Origin: Jatrophihabitans sp.
GTDB lineage: Bacteria; Actinomycetota; Actinomycetes; Mycobacteriales; Jatrophihabitantaceae
Assembly (NCBI RefSeq): GCF_035474675.1
Contig: NZ_DATINC010000185.1
Location: 22,456-54,455, forward strand
Reading direction: 5' to 3'
Length of the DNA stretch: 32,000 bases
Shown here: in pieces, positions 12,887-30,972 of the stretch
Layout: each line of letters begins with the position of its first letter
Position numbering within the stretch: the first letter of the stretch is position 1
The notes under the pieces: generated by a model
Told to the model about the DNA's origin: nothing
What the model saw: only the letters and a program-made list of their open reading frames with translations
Database searches by the model: none
Position numbers and translations under genes: made by a program

Positions 12887-12906
12887 CGGCTCGAAAAAGA
12901 CCGCGT

Positions 12907-12945: not shown

Positions 12946-13284
12946 GCAGCGGCGCGCGGAGTCAGGTCAAACTCCTGCAGCGCCGCGCCAACTTTGCCAT
13001 AGAGCGGTGGCGGTCAGCCGCCTCCGCTTTTGTGCGTGCCGCGGAGGATGGGCCTATGAGCGACACTTCGCCGCGTCAGCGACTGTTTGCCCTGCCATGC
13101 TCCTATTCCCCTGGCTCCAACGGCAAGGCTAAAGGAGGCATTGCTGACAATTGCCTCGTTCCTGGTTTAAACTAGCTGCGCCGAGGTGGGCGGGGTAGAT
13201 GTCAACCGACGCTGTCCGGACGGCACCGATGGGCGCGCCGACCCGAGCACATGATGCTGTTGCGCGACCGCCAGACATGCTGCG

Positions 13285-13306: not shown

Positions 13307-13400
13307 GCCGCCGCCGGGGGCTATGCCGAAAACATCGGGCTACGGCTGGCAAGATATGACGCGCGTGTGATCGATCTTGGCCGAAGGGAGGCAAGGCCAC

Positions 13401-16400
13401 GTGCGTTCGAACAGTCCCCGCTGGCATGAGGTCTCACCGTCCCAGTTCGCCCACGAACGCGCCGGTCTTGATCTTATTCGCGAGCTCATCCCGGACCGCA
13501 AACCATTTCATGTCTGGACAAACTTCGAATTCCGTGACTCTCAAGGACGCTGGCACGAGGTCGACGCTCTCGTCCTCGGGGAGCGCCGTCTCCACCTTGT
13601 CGAGCTCAAGCACTATGCTGGCACGATCGGTGGCAACTCCTACCGATGGCAGCGTGGACGAGGCAGTGAGGACAACCCCCTCCTCAGTGCCCGGCGCAAG
13701 GCCCAGCGCCTCGCCGGCCTGATCCGTGACGCCCTGCGCGAACTGGACACGAGCGGCCAGCTGAAGGCGCCGTACGTCCAGGAGTCGGTATTCCTGCACC
13801 ACGCCGACTCTCGCTGCATCCTGCCCGCGGGCGACCGCATCGATCTCTTCGGCCCGGACGGCAAGTCGGCGAGAACCAACCTGCCCGGCATCAGCGACCG
13901 GCTGCTCGAACCGCAAGCCGGCCCGCGAAATCCGCTGATCGAGAATGACGACCTGCTGGTCCAGGTGTTCGACAAGATCGGCTTCGCCGTACGCCGCGAA
14001 CGCGAAATCGGGTCCTGGCGCCTCATCGGTCCCATCGCCGACGGCGAGGACTGGCAGGACTGGGCCGCCGAGCACAAGCACATGCACTCCAAGCGGGCCC
14101 GCGTCCGCTTCTTCGTCACGCCCGCCGGGGCCGCTGATGCTGAGCGCGCGACCGTTCGCACCCTCGTCAAGCGTGAGTACGACGTCACCGCACGGCTCAA
14201 CCACGACGGTGTGGCCAAGCCGGAGGACTACATCGAGGACGAACTCGGCGTGGGCCTGGTGTACGCCCGCCTCGACGACGAGCGGCGCCTCGACCTTTGG
14301 CTCGCCGATCACGGCGACGAACTCGGCCTGGAGGACCGGCTGCGCCTCGTGCGCCAGATCGCCGAGACGATGAAGTACGTACACCAGCGGCACCTGGTCC
14401 ACCGTGCGCTCTCACCGGCTGCCATCACGGTCAGCGGCACGACGAGCGAACCGACGGTCAAGATCGGCGACTGGCAGTTCGCCGGCGAGACCGTCCCCGA
14501 CGAACAGCGCTCCCGAGGCACTGCCACCAAGCTCTTCGCCGCCGATGAACAGTCCGCCGCCGCCGCCAACGATCCTGCAGGGGCGTATCTCGCTCCCGAG
14601 GCGCGCTGGGTTCGGGACGTCGACCGCGTCCGCCTCGACGTCTTTGCCCTCGGAGCGGTCACCTATCTAGTTCTCTCCGGCATAGCGCCCGCGGCCGACG
14701 GTGGCGAGTTGCGCCAGCGCGTTCGCAACCAGAACGGGCTGGATCTCGCTGTCGACGTGCCCGAACTGGCGAGCGGGCTGCGACAGGTCGTGCTGAGCGC
14801 CACCAACCCGATGGTCAGCGACCGGCTCGCCGACGCCGACGCCTTCCTCGCGGGTCTCGACGCGGCCGCTGAGCAGGCTCCGAACACGAACGAGCCGGAC
14901 GAAGACCCACTCGACGCGATGCCAGGCGCGACCGTCGGCAACCGGTACCGGATCAGGCGCCGTCTCGGCTCTGGTTCCACCGCCGTCGGCCTACTCGTCG
15001 AGGACGCGCAGAACGAGAACGAGCCGTACGTGCTCAAGGTCGGCCTCAACGACCGGGCCGGCCAGCGCCTCGCCGACGAAGCCCAGGTGCTCGCGCAGCT
15101 CGCTTCGACCCGATCGCCACGCATCGTCCGCATCGTCGGCGACGCACCTGTGACAGTGGGCAATCGGCAGGCTCTGATCCTCGAATCCGCCGGCGAGCAG
15201 ACGCTTTCGGACGAGCTGCGCAGCCGCCGGCGGCTCTCGCTCGACCTGCTCGAGCGGTGGGGCACCGACCTGCTCGAAGCCTTGGTCACTCTTGACGCCG
15301 CCGGCATCTCGCACCGCGATATCAAGCCGTCGAACCTCGGCATCCGCGAGGACCGCAAGTACCGGACCAAGCACTTGGTGCTCTTCGACTTCTCGCTGAG
15401 CCGAGCCGGGGCCTCTGCCATCGAGGCCGGAACTCCGCCGTACCTCGACCCGTTCCTCGGCCCACCGCAGCGTCCGACCTTCGACTCGGCCGCCGAGCGG
15501 TACGCCGCCGCGGTGACGCTCTACCAGATGGCGACGGGCAGTCCCTCCGGCCCGGTCTTCGGCGACGGCGTCAGCGACCCGGCGGTGGTTGCCGCCGAGG
15601 CCGCACTGGACGCGACGGTCTTCGATCCGAGCATCGCCCCGGCGCTGGTCGCGTTCTTCGCCAAGGCGCTGCGCCGCAACGCCACGGAGCGGTTCGACAC
15701 CGCGCACGAGATGTTGAACGCCTGGCGCGTCATCTTCCAGGCGGAAGCAACCGCCCGCGAGGTGGCTGTTCCTGCCGACCAGATCACCGCCGAAACCGAG
15801 CTGCGCGTCTCGGGGCTCTCACCCCGCGCGCTGTCGGCGCTGGAGCAGCTACGGGTCGCCACGGTCGGCGACCTCGCCACTGTCGATCCGGCTCGCCTGA
15901 CACGTCTGTCCGGCGTTGCCGAGGCCACCCGCAAGGAGATCCGCGAACAGGCCAAAGCCTGGCGGCAGTCATTCGGCGGAACCGCCCGCCGAAGCGATAC
16001 CGCGCCGGGCGACAGTCCGCTCGCCGATTCTGTCGCCACCGCGGAACGCCTCGTCGAGCTCTCCGGCGGCGACAAAGCACCCGCTCGGAGCGAGTTCGTT
16101 CGCATCATGCTCGGCCTGGAGGGCACTGCCGATCCGTTCGGCGTCGGTGACGAGATCGCGCGGGCGACCGGCAAGGGTGGACAGCCCCAGGTCTCGAACC
16201 TGATGGGCGAGTTGCAGAAGAGATGGTCGGAGCAGCGGGAGGCAACCGAGCTGCTCGACCGGGTAACGACCTTCGCCATCGAGGCCATCAACGACCTCGG
16301 CGGAGTGGCTGCGGTGCAGGACATCGTCGCCTACCTGCTACCTGCGGACGCCGACCTGGGGCAGATCCGCGTGACGACCGGCCTGCTGCGCTTCGCGATC

Positions 16401-17585
16401 GACCGCTCGGACGACGTGGCGGCCGGCGCAGACGAGCCGCCGCTGCTGGCGCGCCGCCGCCTTCGCAAGTCGGGCACCGTCCTGCTCGCCACCGACCCGG
16501 CGATCATCGAGGCGGGTACCGCACTCGGCCGCGCGACGGACTCGCTGCTCGACGAGGCCCGGCGCACCGGGCAGGCGCTGGTACCGGCGGACCGCGTCAT
16601 CGAACGCCTCAGCGCCGCGTGGCCCGCCGACCGTACGCGCCCCATCGACCGGAAGCTCACCCGGCTTGCGGCCCGATTCAGCCAGTCAGCCGCCGTCTCA
16701 GCTCGCGGCGAACTGCATGACCGCGACCTTCCCGCGGCGACCGCACTCTCGCTGGCAATCACCGGTCTCACGCCGGGGCAGACGCTCAGCGTCGACGATG
16801 TCCTTGCCTACGTCCGTTCGCGCTTCCCTGATCTCAGTCCGCTGCCCAAGCGCCCCCAGCTCGACGCGTTGATCGCCGGGTCGGGCCTGAGCTTGTCGTG
16901 GGACGAGCAGCGCAACAAGTACGCGGTCCCTGCAGATCCCGCTTTCACGATGAGCCACGTCAACCGCACCCGGCTCACCCTCGGCGCCGGACGGGCGGGC
17001 CTGCAATCCGGTCGCGAGCAGAGCCCGGCACACCTCGCCCTGGTCTCCAGCGTGCAGACCCCGACGTTCCTCGTTCTGGGGGTACCCAAGCAGCGGCGCC
17101 TCAGCCAGGCGGTTTCTGTGCTGACGCAGCGGTATGACGCCGAGGTGCTGGACGTATCCCGGATCGTGATCAGCGCGATGCGCGAACGCGCGCAGAGCGT
17201 GGGTGTGCCGTGGGAAGCCATGGTCGCAGCGGACGCCGCACCACAGGGCTCCCGAGAATGGCAGGGCATCACCGCCATCGCAGCCCAGGTTGCGCCGGCC
17301 ATCGAGGAGCAACTCCGCGCCGCCACCAACCTCCCGAGCGAGCGGCCCCTGCTTCTCATCGATGCAGCCCCCCTGGCGAGGTACCGCCAGACCCAGATCC
17401 TCGCCCGTCTCGCCGACATCGCCACCGTCCGAGCCCGAGCGACGTGGCTGCTGCTTCCGCTCGGCAACTACACCGGACCGGTCCTCGACGGCGCGGACCT
17501 GCAGTTGAGTCACAGCGGTCAGCTCCTCACGCTCGACGAACCGTGGTTCACGCATGGCGCAGTTCCGGAAGGCGACGCCGCATGA
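13401..17585 (+). CDS. pglW: BREX type 2 serine/threonine kinase PglW (NERD, degenerate kinase, kinase, HhH)
   Basis: ORF 13377..17585. The GTG at 13401 is preferred because it lies 9 nt after GAAGGGAGG (13383-13391); the TTG at 13377 is the alternative. NERD-like EVDALVLGERRLHLVELKHYAG. First kinase-like domain has HRALSPAAI and DWQ. Second domain has LGSGSTAVG, VLK, HRDIKPSN (15312-15335), DFS and GTPPYLDPF. AlphaCTD-like HhH LSPRALSALEQLRVATVGDL...SGVAEATRKEI. Confidence 0.9.
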   Translation: MRSNSPRWHEVSPSQFAHERAGLDLIRELIPDRKPFHVWTNFEFRDSQGRWHEVDALVLGERRLHLVELKHYAGTIGGNSYRWQRGRGSEDNPLLSARRKAQRLAGLIRDALRELDTSGQLKAPYVQESVFLHHADSRCILPAGDRIDLFGPDGKSARTNLPGISDRLLEPQAGPRNPLIENDDLLVQVFDKIGFAVRREREIGSWRLIGPIADGEDWQDWAAEHKHMHSKRARVRFFVTPAGAADAERATVRTLVKREYDVTARLNHDGVAKPEDYIEDELGVGLVYARLDDERRLDLWLADHGDELGLEDRLRLVRQIAETMKYVHQRHLVHRALSPAAITVSGTTSEPTVKIGDWQFAGETVPDEQRSRGTATKLFAADEQSAAAANDPAGAYLAPEARWVRDVDRVRLDVFALGAVTYLVLSGIAPAADGGELRQRVRNQNGLDLAVDVPELASGLRQVVLSATNPMVSDRLADADAFLAGLDAAAEQAPNTNEPDEDPLDAMPGATVGNRYRIRRRLGSGSTAVGLLVEDAQNENEPYVLKVGLNDRAGQRLADEAQVLAQLASTRSPRIVRIVGDAPVTVGNRQALILESAGEQTLSDELRSRRRLSLDLLERWGTDLLEALVTLDAAGISHRDIKPSNLGIREDRKYRTKHLVLFDFSLSRAGASAIEAGTPPYLDPFLGPPQRPTFDSAAERYAAAVTLYQMATGSPSGPVFGDGVSDPAVVAAEAALDATVFDPSIAPALVAFFAKALRRNATERFDTAHEMLNAWRVIFQAEATAREVAVPADQITAETELRVSGLSPRALSALEQLRVATVGDLATVDPARLTRLSGVAEATRKEIREQAKAWRQSFGGTARRSDTAPGDSPLADSVATAERLVELSGGDKAPARSEFVRIMLGLEGTADPFGVGDEIARATGKGGQPQVSNLMGELQKRWSEQREATELLDRVTTFAIEAINDLGGVAAVQDIVAYLLPADADLGQIRVTTGLLRFAIDRSDDVAAGADEPPLLARRRLRKSGTVLLATDPAIIEAGTALGRATDSLLDEARRTGQALVPADRVIERLSAAWPADRTRPIDRKLTRLAARFSQSAAVSARGELHDRDLPAATALSLAITGLTPGQTLSVDDVLAYVRSRFPDLSPLPKRPQLDALIAGSGLSLSWDEQRNKYAVPADPAFTMSHVNRTRLTLGAGRAGLQSGREQSPAHLALVSSVQTPTFLVLGVPKQRRLSQAVSVLTQRYDAEVLDVSRIVISAMRERAQSVGVPWEAMVAADAAPQGSREWQGITAIAAQVAPAIEEQLRAATNLPSERPLLLIDAAPLARYRQTQILARLADIATVRARATWLLLPLGNYTGPVLDGADLQLSHSGQLLTLDEPWFTHGAVPEGDAA

Positions 17586-20500
17586 CGATCAGCAACGACC
17601 TGACCACGCAGCTTCGTACCGAAGTGCTCTGGCTCGAAAACGACCTGCGTGCGCGCCTTGAAGCACTGCCCGAGAGAAAGACAGCATGGGAGGACGAGCA
17701 CAACCGCGCCGTCTCGCGCGGACGTACCGCCGCGGCGTGGGAGTCGTGGCGCGACGAGCGGATCACGCAGGTGGCCGTCGCGTGGGTGCTGGCGACGGTC
17801 TTCGTGCGGTTCTGTGAGGACAACGATCTCGTTCACGGGTTGTGGCTGGCCGGAACGGGCACCCGGCTTCAGCAGGCCGTCGAGTCGCAGAACGCGTTCC
17901 TGCTTGAGAAGGCCCGCACCCGCGACGTGACCGACACCGACTGGATCCTCGATGCGGTCGAGCACCTCGCGGGCCTCCGGGCGACCGCGAGCCTGGTCGC
18001 CAGGGAGAACCCGCTCCGGCTGCTACCGATCTCCGGCGACGCAGCGGAGCGGCTGATCGCGTTCTGGCGCGCCCGCGACGACGAGGGCAACCTGCTGCGG
18101 AACTTCACCGACCCCGAGTGGGACAGCCGGTTCCTCGGCGACCTGTATCAGGACCTCTCCGAGTCGGCCCGCAAGAAGTTCGCGCTGCTGCAGACGCCGG
18201 TCTTCGTCGAGGAGTTCATCCTCGACCGTACCCTGGAGCCTGCCCTCGCCGAACGGCCCCTGGAGGGGTTCAAAGCCATCGACCCCGCGTGCGGTTCCGG
18301 GCACTTCCTGCTCGGCATCTTCGCCCGCCTGCTCGACCGCTGGCACCGGGCCGCGCCCGGCATGGACGAGCGCGCCCGCGTGCAGAAGGCCCTCGACTCG
18401 GTCTACGGCGTCGACCTCAACCCCTTTGCCGTGGCAATTGCACGCTTCCGGCTCACCCTTGCCGCTCTGAAGGCGAGTGGCGAGACGAGCCTGGAGAACG
18501 CCCCCGCGTTCAAATACCACCTCGCGGTGGGTGACTCGCTGCTCTTCGGTTACGGACAGGCCGAGCTGCAGGGTGTGCACGACTACCACGACTTCGCATA
18601 CACCACCGAGGACCGCGATCTGCTGGAATCGATTCTGGCGGACGGCCAGTACGACGCCGTCGTGGCCAACCCGCCGTACATCACGGTCAAGGACTCAGCG
18701 CTCAATGCGAAGTACCGGTGGCGCTACTCGAGCTGCAAGGGAACCTACGCCCTCTCGATTCCCTTCATGGAAAAGCTCTTTGCGTTGGCCAAGGCCGGCG
18801 AGCCCGCAGGCTGGGTGGGCCAGATCACGAGCAACTCATTCATGAAACGTGAGTTCGGCTCGAAACTCATCGAAGAGTTCTTCCCCGAAGTGGATCTCCT
18901 TTACGTGATCAACTCCGAGGGAGCGTGGATTCCAGGACACAATACCGACGGCACGCCCACCGCTATCTTGGTCGGAAGAAACCGACGGCCTGCTGCCTCG
19001 ACGCTGCGAGCCGTACTAAGCAATGGGCGCCGAGAAACTCGCACCGTAGGTGATGACGGAGACGGGCCCTACTGGCAAGCACTCGTCGGCCATCTTGACG
19101 ATCCTTCGTACACGGACGACTGGGTTTCGGTCACGGATCTCGATCGGGCGGTGCTTGCTCGCCACCCGTGGTCGCTCAGCGGCGGCGGGGCCGTGGAACT
19201 GAAGGCGGCGATCGAGGCCTCCGCGGCGAGACGCTTGTCCGCAGCGATCGAGGGCCAAGTGGGTTTTGCCAGCTTCCCCGGCGCTGACGATGCGTTCTTC
19301 GCCCCCGAACATGCGCTGCTCCGCGATGACGTCCCGGCCAGCCTGATCCGCGCGGTGCTGGCAGGAGATGTCGTGCGTGACTGGGAGGTGAGGCTCGACG
19401 AATTCGCACTTGTTCCTTACGACACGCACGCCGACCTGGTGCAGTTGGACATGGACAGCTGGGGGCGACGCCAGTGGCCGCAGCGCACCGTACTCGGAGG
19501 CGTTACGGGCTTCGGGGGCGAAACGCGCGCCGACGCTGGAACTCCGTGGTGGGGGTGGTATCGATGGGTCGCAAGTCGCTACCGCACGCCGTTGTCGATC
19601 ACGTTCGCCGAAGTCGCAACCCACAACCACTTCGTCCTCGACTACGGCAAGAAGGTGTTCAAGCAGACGGCCCCGGTCATCAAACTTCCCCCCGGTGCTA
19701 CGCAAGAGCAGCACCACAGCTTGCTGACTGCCCTGAACTCATCGGTGGTCTGTTTCTGGCTCAAGGAAAAGTGCCAGCCCAAGGGCGGCGCGGCAGGCAC
19801 TTTCTGGGCGCGGACGTATCAGTTCAACGGCAGCAATGTCGAAGACATCCCGCTGCCCGCACAACCAGATGCGTTCTGGGGCCAGCGGATGACCGCGCTG
19901 ATCGAGTGTGCCAATGCCTCGTCACCGGAGCAGGCGGTATCGAACGGGCTGCTCAGCCGCCCCGAGCTCGACGAGCGACGCAGCGTCTACGAAGAGCGCC
20001 GTCGCATCGCGATCAGCTGCCAGGAGGACCTGGACTGGGCGATGTACAGAGCCTACGGACTCATCGACGAGGATCTCACCTGGGAACCCAACCTCGACAT
20101 GGCGATCAGCCTCGGGCAGCGCGCTTTCGAGATAGTGCTGGCCCGCAAGATCGCGGCCGGCGAGGCAGAGACAGCCTGGTTCGACGGGCACAACTCTACG
20201 CCAATCACGGAGCTCCCGGCCGAATGGCCCGCCGAGTACCGCAAGCTCGTGGAGCGGCGCATCGAACTGATCGAGACGAACCCGTTCATCGGGCTGCTGG
20301 AGCGGCCCGAATACAAGCGGCGCTGGATGAGCGAGTCGTGGGAGGTGCGCGAGAAGCGTGCGCTCGCCGGCTGGCTCCTGGACCGGCTCGAAGGCAGAAA
20401 GTTCTGGTTCGACCCGCAGGGCCGCCCGGTCACGCGGTCGGTCCAGCAGCTCGCGGACGAACTCGGGCGCGACACGGAGTTCACCGACGTCCTCGATGTG

Positions 20501-21127
20501 TGGGCGGGTCGCCCTGGCATCCCGGTCGTCACCAGCCTCGCCACGCTCACGGCGGACGAGTCGGTGCCCTTCCTCGCTGCGTACCGCTACAAGGATTCCG
20601 GCCTGCGCACGCGCGCGGCGTGGGAGCGGACTTGGGAGCTGCAGCGTCAAGAAGATGCCGGGATGACGCTGCGCACCCCGATCCCGGTTCCACCGAAGTA
20701 CACGAGCGCCGACTTCGTGAAGCCTTCGTACTGGACGCAGCGCGGCAAGCTCGATGTACCCAAGGAGCGCTTCATCCTGTACCCGAACGCCGGCCGCGAG
20801 ACGGATCCGACACTGGTGCTCGGGTGGGCTGGGTGGGACCACGCCCAGCAGTCACTCGCCCTGGCTACGTTGCTCCAGCAGCGCTCCGACGAGGGTGCCT
20901 CTGACGAGCGACTCGTTCCGCTCGTCGCGGGGCTGGCCGAACTGCTCCCGTGGGTCAAGCAGTGGCACCATGACCTCGACCCGATGTACGGCGACAGTCC
21001 GGCCGCTTTCTTCACCGAGCAGTTGGCCCAATGGTCGTTCCGAGTGGGGGCGACGGCGGCCGATCTCTCGGCGTGGCAGCCCAAGGCCCCGACTCGTGGT
21101 CGGCGAGGCAGGAAGGCGACCTCATGA
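17582..21127 (+). CDS. pglX: BREX adenine-specific DNA methyltransferase PglX
   Basis: ORF 17210..21127 trimmed to the ATG at 17582, which overlaps the pglW TGA. SAM-binding motif I IDPACGSGHFLLG (18278-18316) and catalytic motif IV NPPY (18668-18679). 1181 aa. The N-terminal helical region is as in BREX PglX proteins. Confidence 0.9.
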   Translation: MTISNDLTTQLRTEVLWLENDLRARLEALPERKTAWEDEHNRAVSRGRTAAAWESWRDERITQVAVAWVLATVFVRFCEDNDLVHGLWLAGTGTRLQQAVESQNAFLLEKARTRDVTDTDWILDAVEHLAGLRATASLVARENPLRLLPISGDAAERLIAFWRARDDEGNLLRNFTDPEWDSRFLGDLYQDLSESARKKFALLQTPVFVEEFILDRTLEPALAERPLEGFKAIDPACGSGHFLLGIFARLLDRWHRAAPGMDERARVQKALDSVYGVDLNPFAVAIARFRLTLAALKASGETSLENAPAFKYHLAVGDSLLFGYGQAELQGVHDYHDFAYTTEDRDLLESILADGQYDAVVANPPYITVKDSALNAKYRWRYSSCKGTYALSIPFMEKLFALAKAGEPAGWVGQITSNSFMKREFGSKLIEEFFPEVDLLYVINSEGAWIPGHNTDGTPTAILVGRNRRPAASTLRAVLSNGRRETRTVGDDGDGPYWQALVGHLDDPSYTDDWVSVTDLDRAVLARHPWSLSGGGAVELKAAIEASAARRLSAAIEGQVGFASFPGADDAFFAPEHALLRDDVPASLIRAVLAGDVVRDWEVRLDEFALVPYDTHADLVQLDMDSWGRRQWPQRTVLGGVTGFGGETRADAGTPWWGWYRWVASRYRTPLSITFAEVATHNHFVLDYGKKVFKQTAPVIKLPPGATQEQHHSLLTALNSSVVCFWLKEKCQPKGGAAGTFWARTYQFNGSNVEDIPLPAQPDAFWGQRMTALIECANASSPEQAVSNGLLSRPELDERRSVYEERRRIAISCQEDLDWAMYRAYGLIDEDLTWEPNLDMAISLGQRAFEIVLARKIAAGEAETAWFDGHNSTPITELPAEWPAEYRKLVERRIELIETNPFIGLLERPEYKRRWMSESWEVREKRALAGWLLDRLEGRKFWFDPQGRPVTRSVQQLADELGRDTEFTDVLDVWAGRPGIPVVTSLATLTADESVPFLAAYRYKDSGLRTRAAWERTWELQRQEDAGMTLRTPIPVPPKYTSADFVKPSYWTQRGKLDVPKERFILYPNAGRETDPTLVLGWAGWDHAQQSLALATLLQQRSDEGASDERLVPLVAGLAELLPWVKQWHHDLDPMYGDSPAAFFTEQLAQWSFRVGATAADLSAWQPKAPTRGRRGRKATS

Positions 21128-24100
21128 CGAACCTGTTGCGGAACCTCATCGACATCCCCGAGCGCGCCGGGGCGAACGACTACGTCCTCAAACTCGCCGA
21201 CGGGGTCGCGCCGGGCACGATCGAAGCGACGATCGATCAGTACGTCCTCACTGACGACCTCGTCAGTGCCTTCGACCAGGCACTTCACCAGGTTTCCGCG
21301 GCGCTCGTCGACGGCAAGAGCCGTGGCGCGTTCCTGGAAGGGTCGTTCGGCTCCGGCAAATCGCATTTCATGGCCGTGCTCTACGCGCTGCTCGGGCACG
21401 TCCCCGCCGCGCGTGCGAAGCCGGAACTCGCCGAGGTGATCGCCCGCTACGACGACAAGATCAGTGGCAAGAAGATCCTGCGCCTCGCCTACCACTTCCT
21501 CGGCGCGCGGACGATGGAAGAAGTGCTCCTCGGCGGCTACGTGCAGCAGATCCGCGAGCTGCATCCCGACTGCGTGCTTCCGGCGGTGCACCGCAGCGAC
21601 GCGCTGTTCGACGATGCCGATCGCCTTCGCTCCACGATGGGCGACGAGGCCTTCTTCGCCAGGCTGAACGAAGGAGGGGCCCGGAGTTCCGACGTCTGGG
21701 CCGCCGTCCTGGGAGGAAGCTGGGATCCGGCCAGCTACGACAGCGCCCGCTCGGCCACCGTCGCCGAGAACAGCCGGACGCGACTGGTCAGTGACCTCGT
21801 CCGGGTCTACTTCAGCGCCTTCACCCGCTCCGAGGACTACGTCTCCCTCGAAGAGGGCCTCGCGGTCGTCACCGCCCACGCCAGGTCACTCGGTTACGAC
21901 GCGGTCGTCCAGTTCCTGGACGAGCTGGTGCTGTGGCTGGCCTTCGCTGTGCGCGACAACGAGTTCTTCGCGCGTGAGTCGCAGAAACTGACGAAGCTCG
22001 TCGAGTTCGGCGGTGAGGCTCGTGCGCTTCCGCTCGTCTCCTTCGTCGCCCGGCAGATGGACCTGCGGCGCTACTTCGCCGAGCAGGGTGGTGCCGGTGC
22101 CCAGCTCGAAGCCGTCGACAGCGCGCTGCAGCACCAGAACGAGCGGTTCGCACACATCGTGCTCGGTGACGACAACCTGCAGTTCGTGGCCGAAAAGCGC
22201 CTGCTGAAGCCCCGCGACGCTTCCTCGAAGGCCGTCATCGACGTGGCCTTCGAGGCGCTCGACCGGCGACCGGCGGTGTGGGACGTGCTCCTCGACGGCA
22301 TCAGCGTCGACGGCACGCACCGCGGCTCGGACAAGGAGGGGTTCCGCCGCACCTACCCGTTCTCGCCGGCGCTGGTCTCGACGCTGCGCGCGCTGGCCTC
22401 GGCGATGCAGCGCGACCGCACCGCCCTGAAGGTGATGCAGAAGCTGCTCGTCGACGGCCGGGAGTCGCTCACCGTCGACTCCGTGATCCCGGTCGGCGAC
22501 GTCTACGCCCAGGTGGTCGACGGCCAGAATGCGGTCACTCCCGAGATGGGCGCGCGCATCTCGAATGCCAAGAAGCTCTACGACACCAAGCTGCGGCCGA
22601 TTCTGCTGCGCCAGAACAACCTTCACGAGGACGACGTCGCGGGCCTGCCGGCCAATCACCCGTTCATCGCCGACGAGCGCCTCGCCAAGACGCTGGTGCT
22701 TTCGGCCGTGGCCACCAACGTGCCCGCCCTGCAGGACCTCACGGCCGGACGTCTCGCCGCACTCAACCACGGCTCGATCGTCGCCCCCATCCCCGGCCAA
22801 GAGGTCTCGGCCGTCCTGGCCAAGATCCGTCGGTGGCACGTCGACGTCCCCGAGATCCACATCGGTGAAGGCAACGACCCGGTCATCCGGCTGCAGATCT
22901 CCGAGGTCGCGTACGAAACGATCATCCAACGGGCGCGGATCGAGGACAACGTCGGACGGCGGCGCGACACCCTCAAGCAGCTGGTGTACTCCGCGTTCGG
23001 CTTCGAAGACGTCTCCCCCGACGCGTTCGGAGTGCAGCGCCAGAGCCGGGTCTGGCGTGGGTCGAGGCGTGAGATCGAGGTGCTCTTCGGCAACGTCCGC
23101 GATCCGGCCTGGCTCACCGACCAGAGTTTCCGAGCCGGCCCGGACACCTGGCGCTTCGTCGTGGACTACCCGTTCGACGAGGACGGCCGCGGGCCGGTCG
23201 ACGACCTGCGCCGTGTCGAGGCGCTGAGGTCGAGCGGGTTCAGTTCCACCACAGTGGCATGGTTGCCGCACTTCCTCACGCCGCAGCTGCAGAACGAGCT
23301 GGGCGAGCTGGTGATCCTGGACTGGGTACTGGCCTCGGACCAACGGTACGGCCAGTACGCCGATCACCTCGCCGAAGCCGACCGTCCACAGGCGAAGCTG
23401 CTGCTCACCAACCGGCAGAGCGCTCTGCACGATCGCCTGACCCGAGCCGTTCAAGAGGCCTATGGGGCAGCAGCGCGCACGCCTGGAACCATCGAGGTCG
23501 ACCCGGCGCACACTGACGTCATCTTCAGCCTGGATGCCTCGTTCGCACCCGCGCCACCGGTGGGAACCGACCTCGCCGCGGCGTTCACGAACCTGCTCGA
23601 TCAAGCGTTTATCGCGCTCTTTCCCGCGCACCCGGACTTCCAGCCGTCGAATGAGCCGGTCCGCCCGACGGAGATCGCCACGGTGCTCGACGCCCTGGAG
23701 CAGGCACACCAGGACCCGAGCGGCCGGGTGCCGGTGGAGCCGGGCAAGCGCGATGTCGTGCGCCGGGTCGTGGACCCGCTCAAGATCGCCAATATGGGCC
23801 AGACGCACCTGAGCTTCGACGCCGCGCGGTTCTGGTGGGCAGGCCGATTCTCCATCGCAATGGGAGTCGCCGGCCTGGCCGCCGACGAACCGGTGACCGT
23901 CGACCAGTTGCGTGGCTGGATCACGGCCGAGCAGCCGGCGTGGGGATTGCGTCCGGAGATCGCCGACCTGGTGATCCGCGCGTGGGCGGTCCTGCAGGAC
24001 CGGGCGTGGTATCGCCACGGGACGAACCTGCCCGCACCGGTACCGGGCACGCCGCAGTTCGCCGGGGACATCGAACTGCGCCCCGAGCCGTTGCCCGCCA

Positions 24101-24846
24101 CCGCCGACTGGACCGCGGCGGTTACCCGGGCCGGCGCGGTCTTCGGGTGGACCGGGAACAGCAACCTCACCGCCTCGGCTGTCGGCGAGCTGTTCGAGTC
24201 CGTCTCGAAGACAGCATCAGAACTCGCGGCTGCGGCCAGCGACCTCGAGACGCAGCTGACGAGCGCCGCCGCCTCTCTCGCTGTGCCACCGGGAAGTGGT
24301 GCCCGCTTCGCCACCGCGGCTGCGGCGAAGCGGTTCGTCGACACGTTGCGCGCGACGCGGGACAAGGTCGCTTTCATCGAGCGGATCGCGCGGACCTCGT
24401 TCCCGTCACCGGACCAGGCGGTCGCCCGCTCGCTGAGATCAGCGAACGAGGTTGCCGAGGCGCTTCGGGGGTTCACCTGGAATCGACTCAGGCCGCTGCT
24501 CGCCGCCGAGCATGGGGTTGACCCGCGCAGCGTGCAGGCCAAGGCGATCCTCGACCGGGTGCGTGCGGCATTCGGCCACGACGAACTGACCGAGGCGCTC
24601 GCTCCCGCCCTGACGCGCGCGGGGAACGAAGCCTGGGACTTCGTCACCGCCGCTGCTGCACCCGCTCCGACCCCGCCCGGAACGAGTACTCCAGCACCGC
24701 CGACGCCCGCTGCGCCGACAACTGCGGCACAGGGAAGCCGGACGATCCGCTCCGCCACGGAGTTGCAGGCCGCACTCGATGAACTCACCGCCTTCGGGGC
24801 AGCGAACAGCAACCGCACCATCACCGTCGAGTGGCGGGCGGAGTGA
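21124..24846 (+). CDS. pglY: BREX type 2 P-loop ATPase PglY
   Basis: ORF 21031..24846 trimmed to the ATG at 21124, which overlaps the pglX TGA. Walker A GSFGSGKS (21340-21363) and a Walker B-like VVQFLDE. 1240 aa. The position between pglX and pglZ fits PglY. A Pro/Thr-rich linker precedes a ~45-aa C-terminal tail. Confidence 0.85.
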   Translation: MTNLLRNLIDIPERAGANDYVLKLADGVAPGTIEATIDQYVLTDDLVSAFDQALHQVSAALVDGKSRGAFLEGSFGSGKSHFMAVLYALLGHVPAARAKPELAEVIARYDDKISGKKILRLAYHFLGARTMEEVLLGGYVQQIRELHPDCVLPAVHRSDALFDDADRLRSTMGDEAFFARLNEGGARSSDVWAAVLGGSWDPASYDSARSATVAENSRTRLVSDLVRVYFSAFTRSEDYVSLEEGLAVVTAHARSLGYDAVVQFLDELVLWLAFAVRDNEFFARESQKLTKLVEFGGEARALPLVSFVARQMDLRRYFAEQGGAGAQLEAVDSALQHQNERFAHIVLGDDNLQFVAEKRLLKPRDASSKAVIDVAFEALDRRPAVWDVLLDGISVDGTHRGSDKEGFRRTYPFSPALVSTLRALASAMQRDRTALKVMQKLLVDGRESLTVDSVIPVGDVYAQVVDGQNAVTPEMGARISNAKKLYDTKLRPILLRQNNLHEDDVAGLPANHPFIADERLAKTLVLSAVATNVPALQDLTAGRLAALNHGSIVAPIPGQEVSAVLAKIRRWHVDVPEIHIGEGNDPVIRLQISEVAYETIIQRARIEDNVGRRRDTLKQLVYSAFGFEDVSPDAFGVQRQSRVWRGSRREIEVLFGNVRDPAWLTDQSFRAGPDTWRFVVDYPFDEDGRGPVDDLRRVEALRSSGFSSTTVAWLPHFLTPQLQNELGELVILDWVLASDQRYGQYADHLAEADRPQAKLLLTNRQSALHDRLTRAVQEAYGAAARTPGTIEVDPAHTDVIFSLDASFAPAPPVGTDLAAAFTNLLDQAFIALFPAHPDFQPSNEPVRPTEIATVLDALEQAHQDPSGRVPVEPGKRDVVRRVVDPLKIANMGQTHLSFDAARFWWAGRFSIAMGVAGLAADEPVTVDQLRGWITAEQPAWGLRPEIADLVIRAWAVLQDRAWYRHGTNLPAPVPGTPQFAGDIELRPEPLPATADWTAAVTRAGAVFGWTGNSNLTASAVGELFESVSKTASELAAAASDLETQLTSAAASLAVPPGSGARFATAAAAKRFVDTLRATRDKVAFIERIARTSFPSPDQAVARSLRSANEVAEALRGFTWNRLRPLLAAEHGVDPRSVQAKAILDRVRAAFGHDELTEALAPALTRAGNEAWDFVTAAAAPAPTPPGTSTPAPPTPAAPTTAAQGSRTIRSATELQAALDELTAFGAANSNRTITVEWRAE

Positions 24847-27587
24847 CGACTCCGGTCTCGGCGGCAGTGATCCGCGATCTCCTGAACCGGGACGGTGCCG
24901 CCGCACCCACGGACGGGGGCGTACTCGGGATTCGAGCCCGGCCGGAATGGTCGGGAGCGCCGATCACCTTCGCGGGAAAGCCTGTCACCGTCGTCGCGTG
25001 CGCTTCGTCGCTTGCCGTGCGAGAGGTCCTGCTGTCACGCTCCCCCGGTGAATGGCTCGTCGTCCTCACCGACCGCGACGACGACGACCTCGGCACGGGC
25101 ATCACCGCCCATTTCGTGGGACGGCGGTTGCGCAGCCCGGACCCGTGGGAAGCCGTCAAGCACGGCTTCGAGGCAACCGCGATCGACAGTGCACTCGCCC
25201 GTGCCGAGAACCGCACAGAGCTGGCGAACGCGCTCTTGAACGCCACCCCGAGCAGCGGATGGCCGGCCGCCCGCAGCGGGACGCTCACCTACGACCACGC
25301 CATGCGATCCGTCGCCGCCGCGCACCTCGGCCTGGAGGCCACGTCGATCGACCTCGAGCGAGTCCTGGAGTGGACGACATCGGCGAGCCTGGCACGGTCG
25401 TTGGCCAATCTCACCTCCCTCGCCGGACAACAGCTTGCCGGATCGGTCGTCCGCTGGATCGCGGGCCAGGCCGGTGACCTGGCCGGCGTACTCGGCGCTC
25501 TGGTGCTGGCCGGTCGCGCCGAGGACGTCCTGCCACTCGGGTTGGTCGCGCGGGCCGTGAGTGCCACGGTGAGCGACTCGGGTCCGCAAGCGCTCTTCCG
25601 ACGGAGTGCATCGCTTTCCGCGGACAGGGGACCGGTAGCGCTGGGCGCGTGGGCGGATGCCGCCGAATCGGTCGTGAAGCGCTGGCTCGCCCAGGGCAAC
25701 CCCGCGCCCGAGACGCTGGTCCGGGTGCTGAACCGTGTCGACCGGCTGCTCGCCGACGTCGAGGCAGCGGACTACGCCGGTTCCTCCGACGTCATGCGCA
25801 GTGGGCTGACCCAACGACTCGCATCACTGGGTGACGCCCTGGCGCAGGCCGGATCACGTGCCGCCGGGCGGGTTGCGGCCGGCGCGCTCGGGGAAGCGCT
25901 CGTCCAGTCCGACGAGCGGAAAGCGGTCGAGGCAGCCTGGGAGCGCGTCACCGCTCATGCCCTCGCTCGGCGTGACGGCGAAGTGCGGGTCGTCCGGTCG
26001 CAGGCGGCGGTGCAGCTCGTGCGGTGGCTGGCGTTGGCATCGGCCGAACCGGCGGACCTCGGCTCGGCGATCGAGCAGTACTGGACCACCACGAGCTGGG
26101 TCGACCGCGCCGCGGCTGACGCATGGAACGGCGTCGACGACGAAGAGCTGGCCCGGGGCCTTCGCGGAGTGCTGGAAGCGGTGCGTGCACGGCGCGCCGC
26201 CTTCGACGGCCGGTTCGCCCAACTGCTGGCGGCACATGAGCGGATCGGTGCTGCCGCACCGGCCGGAGCGGTCAACGCAGAGGACCTGCTCCGCAGGTAC
26301 GTCCTGCCGATTGCCGCACAGCTTCCCGTGCTGTTCGTCCTCGCTGACGGGATGAACTGCGCCGTCGCCAGCGAAGTCATGGACGACATCGGCCGCCAGC
26401 TCGACGCGTGGGTCGAATGTGTCCCCGCAGGCCGGACGACACGGCTCGCAGCTATCGCCAGCTACCCGACGCTGACCCGGGTTGCGCGACCGAGCCTGTT
26501 CTGCGGGGAACTGGCGACCGGTGAGCAGGCCGTCGAACAGGCAGGCTTCGCCAAGCTGCTGCAGTCGGTCGGCTTGACCGGTGCGCTGTTCCACAAGCTG
26601 GGTCTGGACAGCAGCGAACCCGGCTTCTCCTCGGCGCACGACGTCCGCGCGGCGATCGACAACCCGAACACGGGCGTGGTTGCGTGCGTGCTCAACACCA
26701 TCGACGACGCACTCGATCGTTCAGACCCGGGTGGCACCGAGTGGGGTGCCGAGTCGGTGAAGCACCTGCGGCCGCTGCTCGAGCGCGCCTACCGGGCCGG
26801 ACGGGTCGTCGTGCTGGCATCGGACCACGGCCACATCGTCGAGCGCCGGGCCGGCCGCATGCTGACCGTCGAAGCGGCGTCGAGCAACCGATCGCACGCC
26901 TACACCGGCACCGTGCAACCCGGCGAAATCCGCCTCACCGGCCGTCGCGTGCTTGAACACAACGGCGATGCCGTTCTCGCGGTGGAGGACGGGCTGCGCT
27001 ACGGGCCCCTCAAAGCCGGCTACCACGGCGGGGCCGCACCGGCCGAGGTCGTCATCCCGGTCACCCTGCTGACCACCGGCGCAGTACCGGCAGGATGGGA
27101 TCTGGCGCTGCCGCAGGCTCCTGCATGGTGGCGCGGGTCTATCGCGTCTGCCGCTCCGGTGCGGCCCGTCGCCGCCGCGCGGCCGGTGGTGATGCCGAGC
27201 AAGCCATCGGACCCGCCGACCCTGTTCGACACCGAGCCCGAAACGGCGGCACCGCAGCCGCCGGCTTCGTCCGATCCGATCACGCAGCTGTTGTCGTCGC
27301 CCGTCTATGCCGAGCAGCGAAATCGCGCCCGTGGCCAGGCCATGCCCGACGAGAAGGTCGCCCGTCTCGTGCGAGCGCTCCTGACCACCCCTGGCAACCG
27401 GATCGACGCCGAATCGGCGGCTGCCGCGCTACAGGTTCCGGTCATCCAGCTCGCCGGTGCCCTGCCGCGCGTGCAGCGGCTCCTCAACGTCGAGCAGTAC
27501 CCGGTGCTCGACCGGGACGGAACGTCGGTTGTCCTGGACGTCACCCTCCTACGCGAGCAGTTCAGCGTCTTCGGAGAGCTGACATGA
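24843..27587 (+). CDS. pglZ: BREX alkaline-phosphatase-superfamily protein PglZ
   Basis: ORF 24831..27587. The GTG at 24843 (GTGA overlap with the pglY stop) is preferred over the GTG at 24831. Alkaline-phosphatase-fold motifs are LADGMN, SDHGH (26820-26834) and GYHGGAAPAEVVIPV. A Pro-rich linker and a ~100-aa C-terminal module follow. Confidence 0.85.
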   Translation: MTTPVSAAVIRDLLNRDGAAAPTDGGVLGIRARPEWSGAPITFAGKPVTVVACASSLAVREVLLSRSPGEWLVVLTDRDDDDLGTGITAHFVGRRLRSPDPWEAVKHGFEATAIDSALARAENRTELANALLNATPSSGWPAARSGTLTYDHAMRSVAAAHLGLEATSIDLERVLEWTTSASLARSLANLTSLAGQQLAGSVVRWIAGQAGDLAGVLGALVLAGRAEDVLPLGLVARAVSATVSDSGPQALFRRSASLSADRGPVALGAWADAAESVVKRWLAQGNPAPETLVRVLNRVDRLLADVEAADYAGSSDVMRSGLTQRLASLGDALAQAGSRAAGRVAAGALGEALVQSDERKAVEAAWERVTAHALARRDGEVRVVRSQAAVQLVRWLALASAEPADLGSAIEQYWTTTSWVDRAAADAWNGVDDEELARGLRGVLEAVRARRAAFDGRFAQLLAAHERIGAAAPAGAVNAEDLLRRYVLPIAAQLPVLFVLADGMNCAVASEVMDDIGRQLDAWVECVPAGRTTRLAAIASYPTLTRVARPSLFCGELATGEQAVEQAGFAKLLQSVGLTGALFHKLGLDSSEPGFSSAHDVRAAIDNPNTGVVACVLNTIDDALDRSDPGGTEWGAESVKHLRPLLERAYRAGRVVVLASDHGHIVERRAGRMLTVEAASSNRSHAYTGTVQPGEIRLTGRRVLEHNGDAVLAVEDGLRYGPLKAGYHGGAAPAEVVIPVTLLTTGAVPAGWDLALPQAPAWWRGSIASAAPVRPVAAARPVVMPSKPSDPPTLFDTEPETAAPQPPASSDPITQLLSSPVYAEQRNRARGQAMPDEKVARLVRALLTTPGNRIDAESAAAALQVPVIQLAGALPRVQRLLNVEQYPVLDRDGTSVVLDVTLLREQFSVFGELT

Positions 27588-28870
27588 CGAGCCCGGTCAG
27601 CGCCCGGCGGCGTCGCGAGATCATAGATGCCCTGCGCCGCGGGACCGTTCCGCAGAACGGCCTCGATCAGTTCGCGGTCGGCCTCGAGCGCTTCGCCGAT
27701 GCGCTGGCGGCAGAACTTGACCTGCTCCCTGCGGGAGGCGCGGTCTTCAAGGCCGTCCGTGGCGAGTACGGCTCCGGCAAGACCTTCTTCGCCCGGTGGC
27801 TCGGTGAACAGGCCAAGGGCCGGGGCATGGCCGTGGCAGAGGTTCAGATCAGCGAGACGGAGACACCGCTGCACAGGCTGGAGACCGTATACCGCCGGGT
27901 GTGTGAGTCGCTGCAGACCGCGGAGTTTCCTCCCTCGGCGTTCCGGCCGGTGCTCGACGCATGGTTGTTCGGCCTGGAGGATCCCACCTCGAGCGGAGCT
28001 GTCGACGAGATGCTCGAACGTCGACTCTCGTCGGTATCGCGCACGACCCCGGCCTTCGCCACTGCGCTGCGTGCCTACCGGCTGGCATTCCTCGCCGAAA
28101 ACGTCGCCGATGCGGAGGGGCTCGCCGCGTGGCTCGCGGGACAGCCACACGTCGCGGCGTCGGTCCGTCGCGCTGCCGGTGTCCGCGGCGAACTCGACCA
28201 CTTCGGTGCCTTCGGCTTCCTGCAGGGACTGCTCACGGTACTTCGCGACGCCGGGCATCCTGGCCTGCTTCTCGTGCTCGATGAAGTGGAAACGCTGCAA
28301 CGCGTCCGGGGTGACGTGCGCGAGAAGGCACTCAACGCGCTGCGCCAACTGATCGATGAGGTCGATGGCGGGCGTTTTCCCGGATTGTACTTGCTGATCA
28401 CCGGCACCCCGGCGTTCTTCGATGGCATCCAAGGTGTGCAACGGCTCGCACCGCTGGCCGGCCGACTGGCCACCGACTTCACCACCGACGCCCGGTTCGA
28501 CAACCCTCGGGCGGTCCAGATCAGGCTGCCGGGATTCACGTCCGCATCGCTCGTCGAGGTCGGACGCAAGGTGCGGGACCTCTATGCCGCAGGTTCGGAT
28601 GCCGCACCCCGGATCACGACTGTCGTGGACGATGGGTATATCGGCAGCCTTGCCTCTGCGGTGTCCGGAGAACTCGGTGGCCGGGTCGGCGTCGCACCTC
28701 GGCTGTTCCTGAAGAAGCTGGTCGGCGATGTCCTCGACCGGGTGGACCAGTTCCCCGACTTCGACCCCCGCCGCGACTACGCGCTGACCGTCAACGCGTC
28801 CGAGCTGAATGCCGTCGAGACGAATGCGCGCGCCCGCACGAATCCGGACGACATCGCGCTGGACCTCTGA
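27584..28870 (+). CDS. brxD: BREX type 2 ATPase BrxD
   Basis: ORF 27095..28870 trimmed to the ATG at 27584, which overlaps the pglZ TGA. Walker A GEYGSGKT (27761-27784) and Walker B LLLVLDEVE. 428 aa. Its position before the Lhr-like helicase gene is as in type 2 BREX. Confidence 0.85.
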   Translation: MTSPVSARRRREIIDALRRGTVPQNGLDQFAVGLERFADALAAELDLLPAGGAVFKAVRGEYGSGKTFFARWLGEQAKGRGMAVAEVQISETETPLHRLETVYRRVCESLQTAEFPPSAFRPVLDAWLFGLEDPTSSGAVDEMLERRLSSVSRTTPAFATALRAYRLAFLAENVADAEGLAAWLAGQPHVAASVRRAAGVRGELDHFGAFGFLQGLLTVLRDAGHPGLLLVLDEVETLQRVRGDVREKALNALRQLIDEVDGGRFPGLYLLITGTPAFFDGIQGVQRLAPLAGRLATDFTTDARFDNPRAVQIRLPGFTSASLVEVGRKVRDLYAAGSDAAPRITTVVDDGYIGSLASAVSGELGGRVGVAPRLFLKKLVGDVLDRVDQFPDFDPRRDYALTVNASELNAVETNARARTNPDDIALDL

Positions 28871-30972
28871 TGACCGGGCGCGGCGAGGATCTGCTCCACC
28901 CGGTCCTGCTCCACCACATCGTCAACACGCTCGGGTGGCCGTCGCTGCGTCCGTTCCAGGCAGAGGCCGTCGAGCCGGTGCTCAGCGGCGCGGACGTACT
29001 GATGGTGGCGCCGACGGCGGGCGGCAAGACCGAGGCAGCCTCGTTTCCATTGCTGTCGGCCATGGTCACCCGCGACTGGCGCGGGCTGTCAGTGCTGTAC
29101 GTGTGTCCGCTGCGGGCGCTGCTCAACAATCTGCAGCCCCGCCTGTCCGGATACGCCTCGTGGCTCGGGCGCCGTGCGGAGCTGTGGCACGGCGACACCG
29201 GAGACACCGCTCGACGCCGGATCCTGTCGGACCCGCCTGACCTGTTGCTGACCACTCCCGAGTCACTCGAAGCGATGCTCGTATCGACTCGCGTCATACC
29301 CCAGGAGTTGTTCGGAAATCTGCAGGCGATCGTCGTCGACGAACTCCATGCCTTCGCTGGAGACGATCGCGGCTGGCACCTGCTGGCAGTGCTGGAGCGG
29401 TTGCAGCGGTTGGCTCGTCGTCCCATCCAGCGGGTGGGGCTCTCGGCGACGGTCGGCAATCCGGCGGAGTTGCTCTCCTGGCTGCAAGGGAGTGGACGAG
29501 ACACTCGACCCGCCGCCGTCGTACACGCCCGATCCGCTCAATCCCCCCATACTGGCGTGGACGTCGGACTTGACTACGTCGGGTCGACGGAGAACGCGGC
29601 GACCGTGATCGCCGGTCTGCACAGGGGTGAGAAGCGTCTGGCGTTCTGCGAGAGCCGGCGCCAGGTGGAGGAGCTCGCTATCGCCCTTCGTGCGCGCTCC
29701 GTCGAGACCTACGTGTCGCACTCCTCGCTGTCCGTCGACGAGCGGCGGCGGGCTGAGGAGGCGTTCGCCCAGTCGCGGGACTGCGTGATCGTCTCCACTT
29801 CTACGCTCGAACTCGGCATCGACGTCGGCGATCTCGACCGGGTGATCCAGATCGACGCGCCGCGCACCGTCGCATCATTCCTGCAGCGGCTGGGCCGGAC
29901 GGGTCGCCGCGCAGGCAGCACCCGTAACGCCCTGTTCCTGGCAACGCGGACGTCGGGCCTCGTCCACGCGGCAGGCCTGCTGCGGTTGTGGTTGTCAGGG
30001 TGGGTCGAACCGGTCACCCCTCCTCCATCACCCCGTCACCTGATCACGCAACAGGTTCTGGCGCTCTGCCTCCAGGAACACCAGGTCGGAACGAACCTCT
30101 GGCCCGAGTGGTGGAGCGGACTCGGGGCCTGGACCGACGAAGATGCACGCGCGGTAGTCCTGTGGCTGGTCGAGACCGGACACCTCGACGCGGACGATGG
30201 GATGCTCTTCGTCGGACCAGAGGCCGAGCGCCGCTACGGCCGGCGGCACTTTATGGAACTGGTTTCCGTCTTCACCTCCGACCCGGAACTCGTTGTCTTC
30301 GCCGGCAACGACGAGATCGGCAGGATCGATCCGATCGTGCTCCTGAAGAAGGAGGACGGGCCGCGCCACCTCTCCCTCGCCGGGCATGCTTGGCGGGTGA
30401 CGCACATCGACTGGCGCCGTCACCGGTGTTGGGTCGAACGAGCCGACCAGGGCGCGCGGATGCGCTGGACCAGCAGCCCGCAGCCGATGTCCTTTGAGTT
30501 GTGCCGGGCACGACGCGATGTCCTGCTCGGCACTGATCCCGAGGTGTGGCGGTCGCAGCGCGCCGTGGCAGAGTTCGCCGCCATCCGTGCCGATTCCGCC
30601 GGCCGGGTCCGGCACGGTGCAACGGCCATCGACAGCGATCGGTGGTGGTGGACCTTCGCCGGCGCACGTGCCAACGCCACGCTCGCCGCCGCGCTTCCGG
30701 CCGTGATCGAGGACTCGGCCGGCTTCGACAACGACCGGGTGCGGATCAGGGAGGACTTGCCGGACACGGCACTCGACGCTGCAGTGGCTTCGTTGGATCC
30801 CGCTCGAGAGCCTGTCATCTCGGTGGACCAGAACGCCGTCCGGGAGCTGAAGTTCGCCGAGTCACTGCCGCCTGAGTTCGCGTCGTTGACCCTTGCGGAG
30901 CGGATCATCGATGTAGCCGGGATGCGCGCCGTGGTGGACCAGCCGCGCATCCGGCTCGGCGAGCCGCATTAG
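28870..30972 (+). CDS. brxHI: BREX type 2 Lhr-like DEAD/DEAH helicase BrxHI
   Basis: 700-aa ORF. Q-motif region RPFQAEA, motif I APTAGGKT (29008-29031), motif II DELH (29338-29349), motif III SAT and motif VI QRLGRTGRR. The ATG shares its A with the brxD TGA. Confidence 0.85.
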   Translation: MTGRGEDLLHPVLLHHIVNTLGWPSLRPFQAEAVEPVLSGADVLMVAPTAGGKTEAASFPLLSAMVTRDWRGLSVLYVCPLRALLNNLQPRLSGYASWLGRRAELWHGDTGDTARRRILSDPPDLLLTTPESLEAMLVSTRVIPQELFGNLQAIVVDELHAFAGDDRGWHLLAVLERLQRLARRPIQRVGLSATVGNPAELLSWLQGSGRDTRPAAVVHARSAQSPHTGVDVGLDYVGSTENAATVIAGLHRGEKRLAFCESRRQVEELAIALRARSVETYVSHSSLSVDERRRAEEAFAQSRDCVIVSTSTLELGIDVGDLDRVIQIDAPRTVASFLQRLGRTGRRAGSTRNALFLATRTSGLVHAAGLLRLWLSGWVEPVTPPPSPRHLITQQVLALCLQEHQVGTNLWPEWWSGLGAWTDEDARAVVLWLVETGHLDADDGMLFVGPEAERRYGRRHFMELVSVFTSDPELVVFAGNDEIGRIDPIVLLKKEDGPRHLSLAGHAWRVTHIDWRRHRCWVERADQGARMRWTSSPQPMSFELCRARRDVLLGTDPEVWRSQRAVAEFAAIRADSAGRVRHGATAIDSDRWWWTFAGARANATLAAALPAVIEDSAGFDNDRVRIREDLPDTALDAAVASLDPAREPVISVDQNAVRELKFAESLPPEFASLTLAERIIDVAGMRAVVDQPRIRLGEPH

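Follow-up and report, generated by a model that had tools for sequence, protein, structure and literature searches.

Type 2 BREX, of which the Pgl system of Streptomyces coelicolor is an example, has been recorded in 1309 taxa in a 2026 survey that also analysed the domains of each component, and its BrxD and BrxHI proteins form a tightly linked ATPase-helicase pair, proposed to be a helicase loader and its helicase (PMC12839542). In S. coelicolor, PglX is a methyltransferase and PglW an autokinase, PglX and PglZ stand in a toxicity relationship in which PglZ is needed to tolerate PglX, and pglW, pglX, pglY and pglZ are each required for one Pgl phenotype (PMC4365076); PglZ has been reported to be a nuclease (PMC12205998). 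Parts of this machinery resemble components of type 1 BREX (brxA-brxB-brxC-pglX-pglZ-brxL), of MADS (mad1-8) and of Shango (SngABC). The present analysis concerns a 32,000-nucleotide (nt) stretch of a Jatrophihabitans sp. assembly (contig NZ_DATINC010000185.1), hereafter the window, in which positions 13401-30972 carry pglW, pglX, pglY, pglZ, brxD and brxHI in this order. With a probability of about 0.9, the locus is read as an intact canonical type 2 BREX (Pgl) system on a horizontally acquired chromosomal island, probably forming one transcription unit with a promoter just 5' of pglW. This reading is carried by what the sequence shows, namely which genes are present, that they are intact, how they are ordered and how tightly they are packed, as well as by their conservation in relatives and by the compositional island; beyond this, we infer expression as a single transcript, a methylation target, whether the methylated DNA is that of the host or of phage progeny, and protection.

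Gene content and integrity of the locus

The window is high-GC, actinobacterial DNA, and the listing of its open reading frames (ORFs) places six consecutive long ORFs on the forward strand, each taken from the start nearest the upstream stop: pglW (13401-17585, 1394 amino acids, aa), pglX (17582-21127, 1181 aa), pglY (21124-24846, 1240 aa), pglZ (24843-27587, 914 aa), brxD (27584-28870, 428 aa) and brxHI (28870-30972, 700 aa). All the motifs quoted for these six same-strand ORFs in a preliminary description of the locus are present in the translations, namely HRDIKPSN in PglW, DPACGSGHF and NPPY in PglX, GSFGSGKS in PglY, SDHGH and HGGAAPAE in PglZ, GEYGSGKT in BrxD, and APTAGGKT, DELH and QRLGRTGRR in BrxHI. 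The GTG start of pglW at 13401 gives a protein of the same length, 1394 aa, as the gene call in the closest related locus (L082, PglX 77% identical) and as the NCBI protein, and a Shine-Dalgarno-like GGGAGG lies 9 nt 5' of it (13386-13391, forward strand), with GGAGG kept in the alignment with L082 and a second relative, L002. Read from pglW to brxHI, the junctions are ATGA, ATGA, GTGA and ATGA, all 4-nt overlaps, and TGATG, a 1-nt overlap, just as had been described for the five of them, and no internal stop, frameshift or truncation was found across the 17.6 kb, either in the translations, which are clean as previously stated, or in the profile matches, which run nearly end to end.

Assignment of the proteins by profile to PglW, PglX, PglY, PglZ, BrxD and BrxHI had been set beforehand as the test of this identification, and PADLOC returned all six over their full length: PglW with 1292 bits (profile positions 3-1394 of 1403), PglX with 1565 bits (4-1187 of 1189), PglY with 1400 bits to the BrxC-PglY model (2-1237 of 1240), PglZ with 779 bits (8-907 of 910), BrxD with 652 bits (3-439 of 440) and BrxHI with 1001 bits (6-691 of 698). 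Four of the six also exceed the curated cut-offs of NCBIfam equivalog or exception models (BREX_PglW, 1292.7 bits with a cut-off of 990; BREX_2_MTaseX on PglX, 1569 with 400; BREX_PglZ_2, 770 with 200; BREX_BrxD, 633 with 350); for BrxHI, the NCBIfam scan gave no BrxHI match, the best being Lhr-type helicases, all under cut-off. Pfam places NERD and two kinase regions on PglW, Eco57I, MmeI_Mtase, N6_Mtase and DUF7008 (531 bits) on PglX, BrxC_BrxD (448 bits) on BrxD, and DEAD and Helicase_C on BrxHI, and in PADLOC and NCBIfam the models of type 1, 3, 5 and 6 BREX, MADS and Shango score far lower than those of type 2. Profiles and gene order together bear out the proposed type 2 composition, six clustered and co-directional genes in the order W-X-Y-Z-D-HI, in which the BrxD ATPase and the BrxHI helicase are adjacent and overlap by 1 nt. 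The six families, their order, orientation and domain content are those of type 2 BREX as surveyed (PMC12839542), down to a NERD-pseudokinase-kinase PglW, a DUF7008-bearing PglX and a BrxD-BrxHI pair, and nothing substantial differs, the lineage details being a serine-to-asparagine change in PglZ (S505N) and the flanking genes.

That the family was already described, as had been noted, is evident both from the survey and from NCBI, where the six proteins are found verbatim under the consecutive accessions HST50351.1-HST50356.1 of Jatrophihabitans sp. and are named, in order, PglW, BREX-2 PglX, phage resistance protein, BREX-2 PglZ, BrxD and DEAD/DEAH box helicase; four of the six names are those of BREX or BREX-2 components, and PglX is 100% identical to the entry labelled as BREX-2 PglX of Jatrophihabitans sp. 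The locus is, in short, an ordinary representative of a well-catalogued family and has already been annotated.

With type 1 BREX, the locus shares the core methyltransferase, a BrxC-family ATPase and PglZ, but it has PglW, BrxD and BrxHI instead of separate brxA, brxB and brxL genes, none of which turned up when the six proteins, flanking genes and intergenic ORFs were searched, and the type 1 models stay far under their cut-offs (BREX_1_MTaseX, 52.7 vs 500 bits; BREX_BrxC, 35.5 vs 400 bits). Nor did the flanking genes or the scanned intergenic ORFs contain a standalone BrxA, BrxB or BrxL, another defence match, or a WYL/BrxR-type regulator, the last in accordance with the preliminary description. 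The companion claim that brxA, brxB, brxC and brxL are all missing holds, for the first three, as regards separate genes only, since PglY is a BrxC homologue and the C-terminal half of PglW is reported to contain fused BrxA-like triple winged helix-turn-helix (wHTH) modules and a BrxB-like inactive STAND domain (PMC12839542).

Integrity at the level of residues was assessed with homologues drawn from 80 related loci, kept from the 588 confirmed relatives that a PglX alignment retrieved when run against one genome for each GTDB species. Over the six proteins, with 27-78 sequences per family and a column counted as conserved when at least 95% conserved among relatives, 749 of the 763 conserved columns are kept (PglW, 88/89; PglY, 91/91; PglZ, 59/62), and all catalytic or metal-binding residues checked are retained. 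They comprise, in PglW, the NERD set E53/D55/E68/K70 and K546, E560, HRD 638-640, N645 and D663 of the active kinase; in PglX, motif I (D234-F242) and NPPY 363-366; in PglY, Walker A (G73-H81) and Walker B (D266-E267); in BrxD, Walker A (G60-T67) and Walker B (D233-E234); and in BrxHI, motif I (A47-T54), DELH 157-160, SAT 192-194 and motif VI (Q339-R347). By these motifs and domains, PglX is predicted to be a gamma-class N6-adenine DNA methyltransferase with a C-terminal DUF7008 domain, PglY a BrxC-family P-loop ATPase, BrxD an ORC/Cdc6-type AAA+ ATPase, and BrxHI an Lhr/Ski2-like superfamily 2 helicase.

In sequence, PglW joins a NERD nuclease to two kinase-type domains, an inactive one followed by an active Ser/Thr kinase: the first kinase-like domain has HRA in place of HRD, the second has HRD, and Asp occupies the pseudokinase HRD position in none of 52 family members, a pattern of pseudokinase followed by active kinase that agrees with the published description (PMC12839542). 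When aa 800-1394 were modelled with AlphaFold from a shallow alignment of 10 sequences (mean predicted local distance difference test score 77.9), helical and winged modules came first and an alpha/beta domain after them; the model's top Foldseek matches in the PDB are AAA+/ORC/RecA-type P-loop folds, all weak (E at least 0.14); the model is compatible with the published wHTH and STAND assignment without independently proving it. PglZ is predicted to be a metallo-phosphodiesterase or nuclease of the alkaline-phosphatase fold. When mapped from the metal-ligand list of PorX (PMC9757075), all seven ligands are present (D502, T545, D621, D625, D661, H662 and H728), D625 corresponding to a PorX His that is Asp in BREX-2; PorX has itself been aligned with the type 1 PglZ of E. 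fergusonii, T272 and H500 being equivalent to T538 and H741 (PMC12205998), so that the PglZ ligands of the window align with PorX and, through it, with type 1.

If the system works like its homologues, the Pgl system of S. coelicolor and type 1 BREX, then PglX, together with the PglY ATPase and PglZ, would place N6-methyladenine on a short non-palindromic motif by which DNA would be distinguished. PglZ would be a metal-dependent phosphodiesterase or nuclease, serving both as an effector and as the partner that prevents PglX toxicity; PglW, with a C-terminal DNA-binding and sensing half coupled to the NERD nuclease and an autophosphorylating Ser/Thr kinase, would probably sense infection, and BrxD would load or activate the BrxHI helicase on target DNA.

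Layout in relatives, promoter-like motif and island

Among the related loci, 63 were long enough to judge gene order, and 25 of these 63 species-representative loci carry the complete W-X-Y-Z-D-HI series on a single strand without gaps, a figure that is an undercount, as the fast-evolving C-terminus of PglW was sometimes missed by tblastn. Where all six genes are present (39 loci), the commonest junction values are -4 and -1, several loci overlap at all five junctions, and L082 has the same gene order with identical 4,4,4,4,1-nt overlaps. The compact overlapping operon, highlighted earlier, is therefore unremarkable, being the commonest arrangement among relatives and its overlaps the usual junctions. 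A split layout, with pglW-pglX several kb from pglY-pglZ-brxD-brxHI, is found mainly in Streptomyces and Micromonospora. S. coelicolor shares homologous PglW, PglX, PglY and PglZ with the window, together with key features such as the NPPY of PglX, the catalytic loop and invariant Lys of PglW and the phosphatase-fold Asp residues of PglZ, but its genes form two operons 6 kb apart, which bears out the earlier statement that pglWX and pglYZ are separate units there, and its pglX carries a phase-variable G tract (PMC4365076). Judged from the sequenced loci, the split layout is the minority form, and the model organism, rather than the Jatrophihabitans locus, is the exception.

The Jatrophihabitans operon, in contrast to that of S. 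coelicolor, is contiguous and overlapping, and a phase-variable homopolymer of the kind known from S. coelicolor pglX was rejected, as the operon holds no G or C run longer than six; across the whole window no homopolymer reaches seven, and the operon itself has just three C6 runs. A separate observation on pglX comes from a Mycolicibacterium bacteremicum metagenome-assembled genome (L058, 6317-13546), where the PglX match spans 7.2 kb vs the ~3.5 kb expected, which suggests an insertion in the gene or its duplication.

A conserved TGGCAAGAT motif is located 54 nt upstream of the pglW start (13347-13355, forward strand), and the corresponding 9-mer TGGCA[AG]GAT occurs 52-69 nt upstream of pglW in the window and in five relatives (L082, position 5768; L002, 5750; L073, 5624; L009, 4885; L061, 5434), whose upstream regions are, like that of the window, otherwise not alignable. 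The five occurrences in the upstream windows of relatives compare with ~0.027 expected, a post hoc figure, the motif having been picked after three of the sequences had been seen. The 9-mer suggests an extended -10-type promoter element and an operon that carries its own promoter; a similar TGGCAGGAC recurs within pglW, where it codes for a conserved W-Q-D. At the other end, a terminator could be formed by a short GC-rich hairpin at 30952-30966 (forward strand), just 5' of the brxHI stop, which would also serve the convergent downstream gene; it is a weak candidate, since terminator-like hairpins occur in the region at chance rate in a consensus scan (8 observed, 7.5 expected).

The compositional evidence for an island is the GC content at third codon positions (GC3), which drops from 0.93-0.98 in the ten genes before the operon to 0.79-0.87 in the six BREX genes, and stands at 0.76 in the gene that follows them. 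The drop falls between pglW and the gene upstream of it, which encodes an ScbR-type receptor, so that the left edge is placed at ~12.8-13.4 kb and the right edge beyond the window, and the operon is therefore read as part of a horizontally acquired island. The window contains no tRNAs or Rfam matches that could serve as island landmarks, and the only contig found that extends the context ends at the window equivalent of ~32.6 kb. The flanks of L082 are wholly unlike those of the window, which is consistent with a mobile island; the stretch before its pglW (L082 1-5571) holds divergently oriented genes, probably another defence system, whose products are an SNF2-family helicase, a PLD-like protein and an uncharacterized protein of 431 aa. 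Across 39 related loci, the upstream neighbours of pglW are heterogeneous in Pfam content, with GmrSD-type type IV restriction the most frequent (directly upstream in 5/39), next to genes for PLD proteins, Schlafen-type helicases, resolvases and DDE transposases, and no recurrent regulator was found in the Pfam scan of these 39 neighbours.

Directly upstream of the island, the window carries an ScbA-type butyrolactone synthase gene (11134-12063, forward strand; NCBIfam 223.8 bits, cut-off 200) and scbR, the gene for the ScbR-type receptor (12110-12793, reverse strand; 203.8 bits, cut-off 150), which is divergent from pglW across a 607-bp gap of 63% GC. The other upstream genes encode an ABC ATPase, an FtsX permease, an EamA transporter, a LysR regulator, a glyoxalase, a peptidase S51, a DUF3516 helicase and a LacI regulator. 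The DUF3516 protein (7330-9876), a Ski2-like DEAD/DEAH helicase whose gene has the GC3 of the host, is not part of a defence system; its partial HamB-like PADLOC matches are confined to the generic helicase domain. Downstream, a convergent gene on the reverse strand (30969-32000 in the window, complete at 12772-14157 of L001) overlaps the brxHI stop by 4 nt and encodes a protein of 461 aa that has a hydrophobic segment at its N-terminal end and no Pfam or PADLOC match. The family of this protein is tiny, with 12 homologues found. Weak homologues in L027 and L052 lie 1.3-1.6 kb downstream of pglX; with a family of this size and one homologue on a 61-kb contig away from BREX, a role of the membrane protein as a BREX accessory is not supported.

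Weighing of alternative readings

Three points weigh against an intact, canonical system. The narrow NCBIfam model for PglY scores 980 bits, under its cut-off of 1700; the mechanism of type 2 is unsettled in the literature, where it is disputed whether host DNA or phage progeny is marked (PMC12839542); and PglZ carries Asn instead of Ser at position 505 (window 26355-26357), in the DGMS motif and three residues past the metal-binding Asp502. Position 505 is Ser in 41 of 44 relatives and in L082, and D or G in two others, and Asn505 is also found in a near-identical second assembly; S505N is lineage-specific. Loss of the catalytic nucleophile through S505N was ruled out, as the PorX mapping identifies T545, in the PTLT motif, as the nucleophile and metal-ligand Thr.

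Of the other readings, the one that survives best, unlikely as it is, divides the operon into three co-transcribed but separable modules, namely a BREX core of PglX-PglY-PglZ, a stand-alone NERD-kinase sensor or effector that acts by abortive infection (PglW) and a Shango-like BrxD-BrxHI. The secondary PADLOC matches of PglW to the kinase defence families PD-T4-6, mad6 and MkoA, and those of BrxD to SngB (101 bits) and BrxHI to SngC (382 bits), from which the pair is taken to be homologous to the ATPase-helicase module of Shango, are in favour of such a division, as are the separate losses within the 1309 type 2 taxa, where PglW is present in ~80%, BrxHI in 91% and BrxD in 88% while BrxD and BrxHI remain tightly linked (PMC12839542), and the distance of several kb between pglW-pglX and pglY-pglZ-brxD-brxHI in many relatives. 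Nevertheless, neither MADS nor Shango is found as such: PglW resembles the NERD-kinase MAD6, but at 252.7 bits with a cut-off of 460, MAD2 reaches 20.1 of 720 and no other mad genes are present; and the SngB and SngC matches are weaker than those to BrxD and BrxHI, with the SngA (TerB) partner not found by PADLOC. Moreover, stop/start overlaps pack all six genes together in the window, in L082 and in many other genera, and in S. coelicolor the single Pgl phenotype needs every one of pglW, pglX, pglY and pglZ (PMC4365076), which favours the single type 2 system.

Less probable still is an operon that is intact in sequence but silent or impaired, for instance unexpressed after transfer or weakened by S505N near Asp502. 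The lineage-specific character of this change, at a position that is Ser in L082 and most relatives, would fit such a loss, and so would the marked difference between the GC3 of the island and that of the host and the scarcity of sigma-70-consensus promoter-like sites, of which there is a single one in 19 kb, at 13144-13173. Against this, PglZ keeps all seven metal ligands and 59 of its 62 conserved columns, two relatives tolerate D or G at position 505, the promoter-like motif upstream of pglW is conserved, and 17.6 kb free of frameshifts, internal stops and truncations argues for ongoing selection.

The proximity of scbA and scbR raises the question of control by gamma-butyrolactone signalling, through an ScbR-family receptor whose gene starts at 12793, points away from pglW and shares with it the 607-bp region. 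This region contains an imperfect palindrome, AAAGACCG-N6-CGGTTTAC (12896-12917), which resembles the boxes bound by butyrolactone receptors; it lies ~100 nt from scbR vs ~430 nt upstream of the pglW promoter-like motif, is more likely scbR's own operator by its position, and carries no statistical weight, the search for its pattern being circular, as the pattern came from the same sequence. A conserved ScbA/ScbR-BREX association was rejected, as tblastn with both proteins against 81 related loci gave no match, and neither the 80 relatives nor L082 have an ScbA or ScbR homologue beside BREX, their neighbours being heterogeneous defence and mobile-element genes; with this absence, the heterogeneity of the upstream neighbours and a GC3 break that falls between scbR and pglW, the adjacency looks like an accident of insertion. 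That an ScbR-family receptor may, after insertion of the island next to ScbA/ScbR, gate BREX-2 expression by population density is accordingly very improbable, though it would, if true, be a quorum-type control not described for BREX.

Meaning for type 2 BREX

The locus adds little to the knowledge of BREX types, as one more standard example of a family catalogued in more than 1000 taxa. Its practical value is modest and lies in a clean 17.6-kb operon, free of frameshifts and phase tracts, that is clonable for the study of the type 2 mechanism; to this extent the suggestion that it would be a good experimental handle stands, but not as a distinction, because it comes from an uncultured Jatrophihabitans assembly and culturable genera such as Micromonospora, Gordonia, Nocardia, Rhodococcus and Kocuria offer dozens of equally compact loci that would be at least as suitable. 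What is new here is minor, namely the PglZ S505N change and the promoter-like TGGCA[AG]GAT upstream of pglW, the latter being a small but usable lead on the expression of type 2 BREX.

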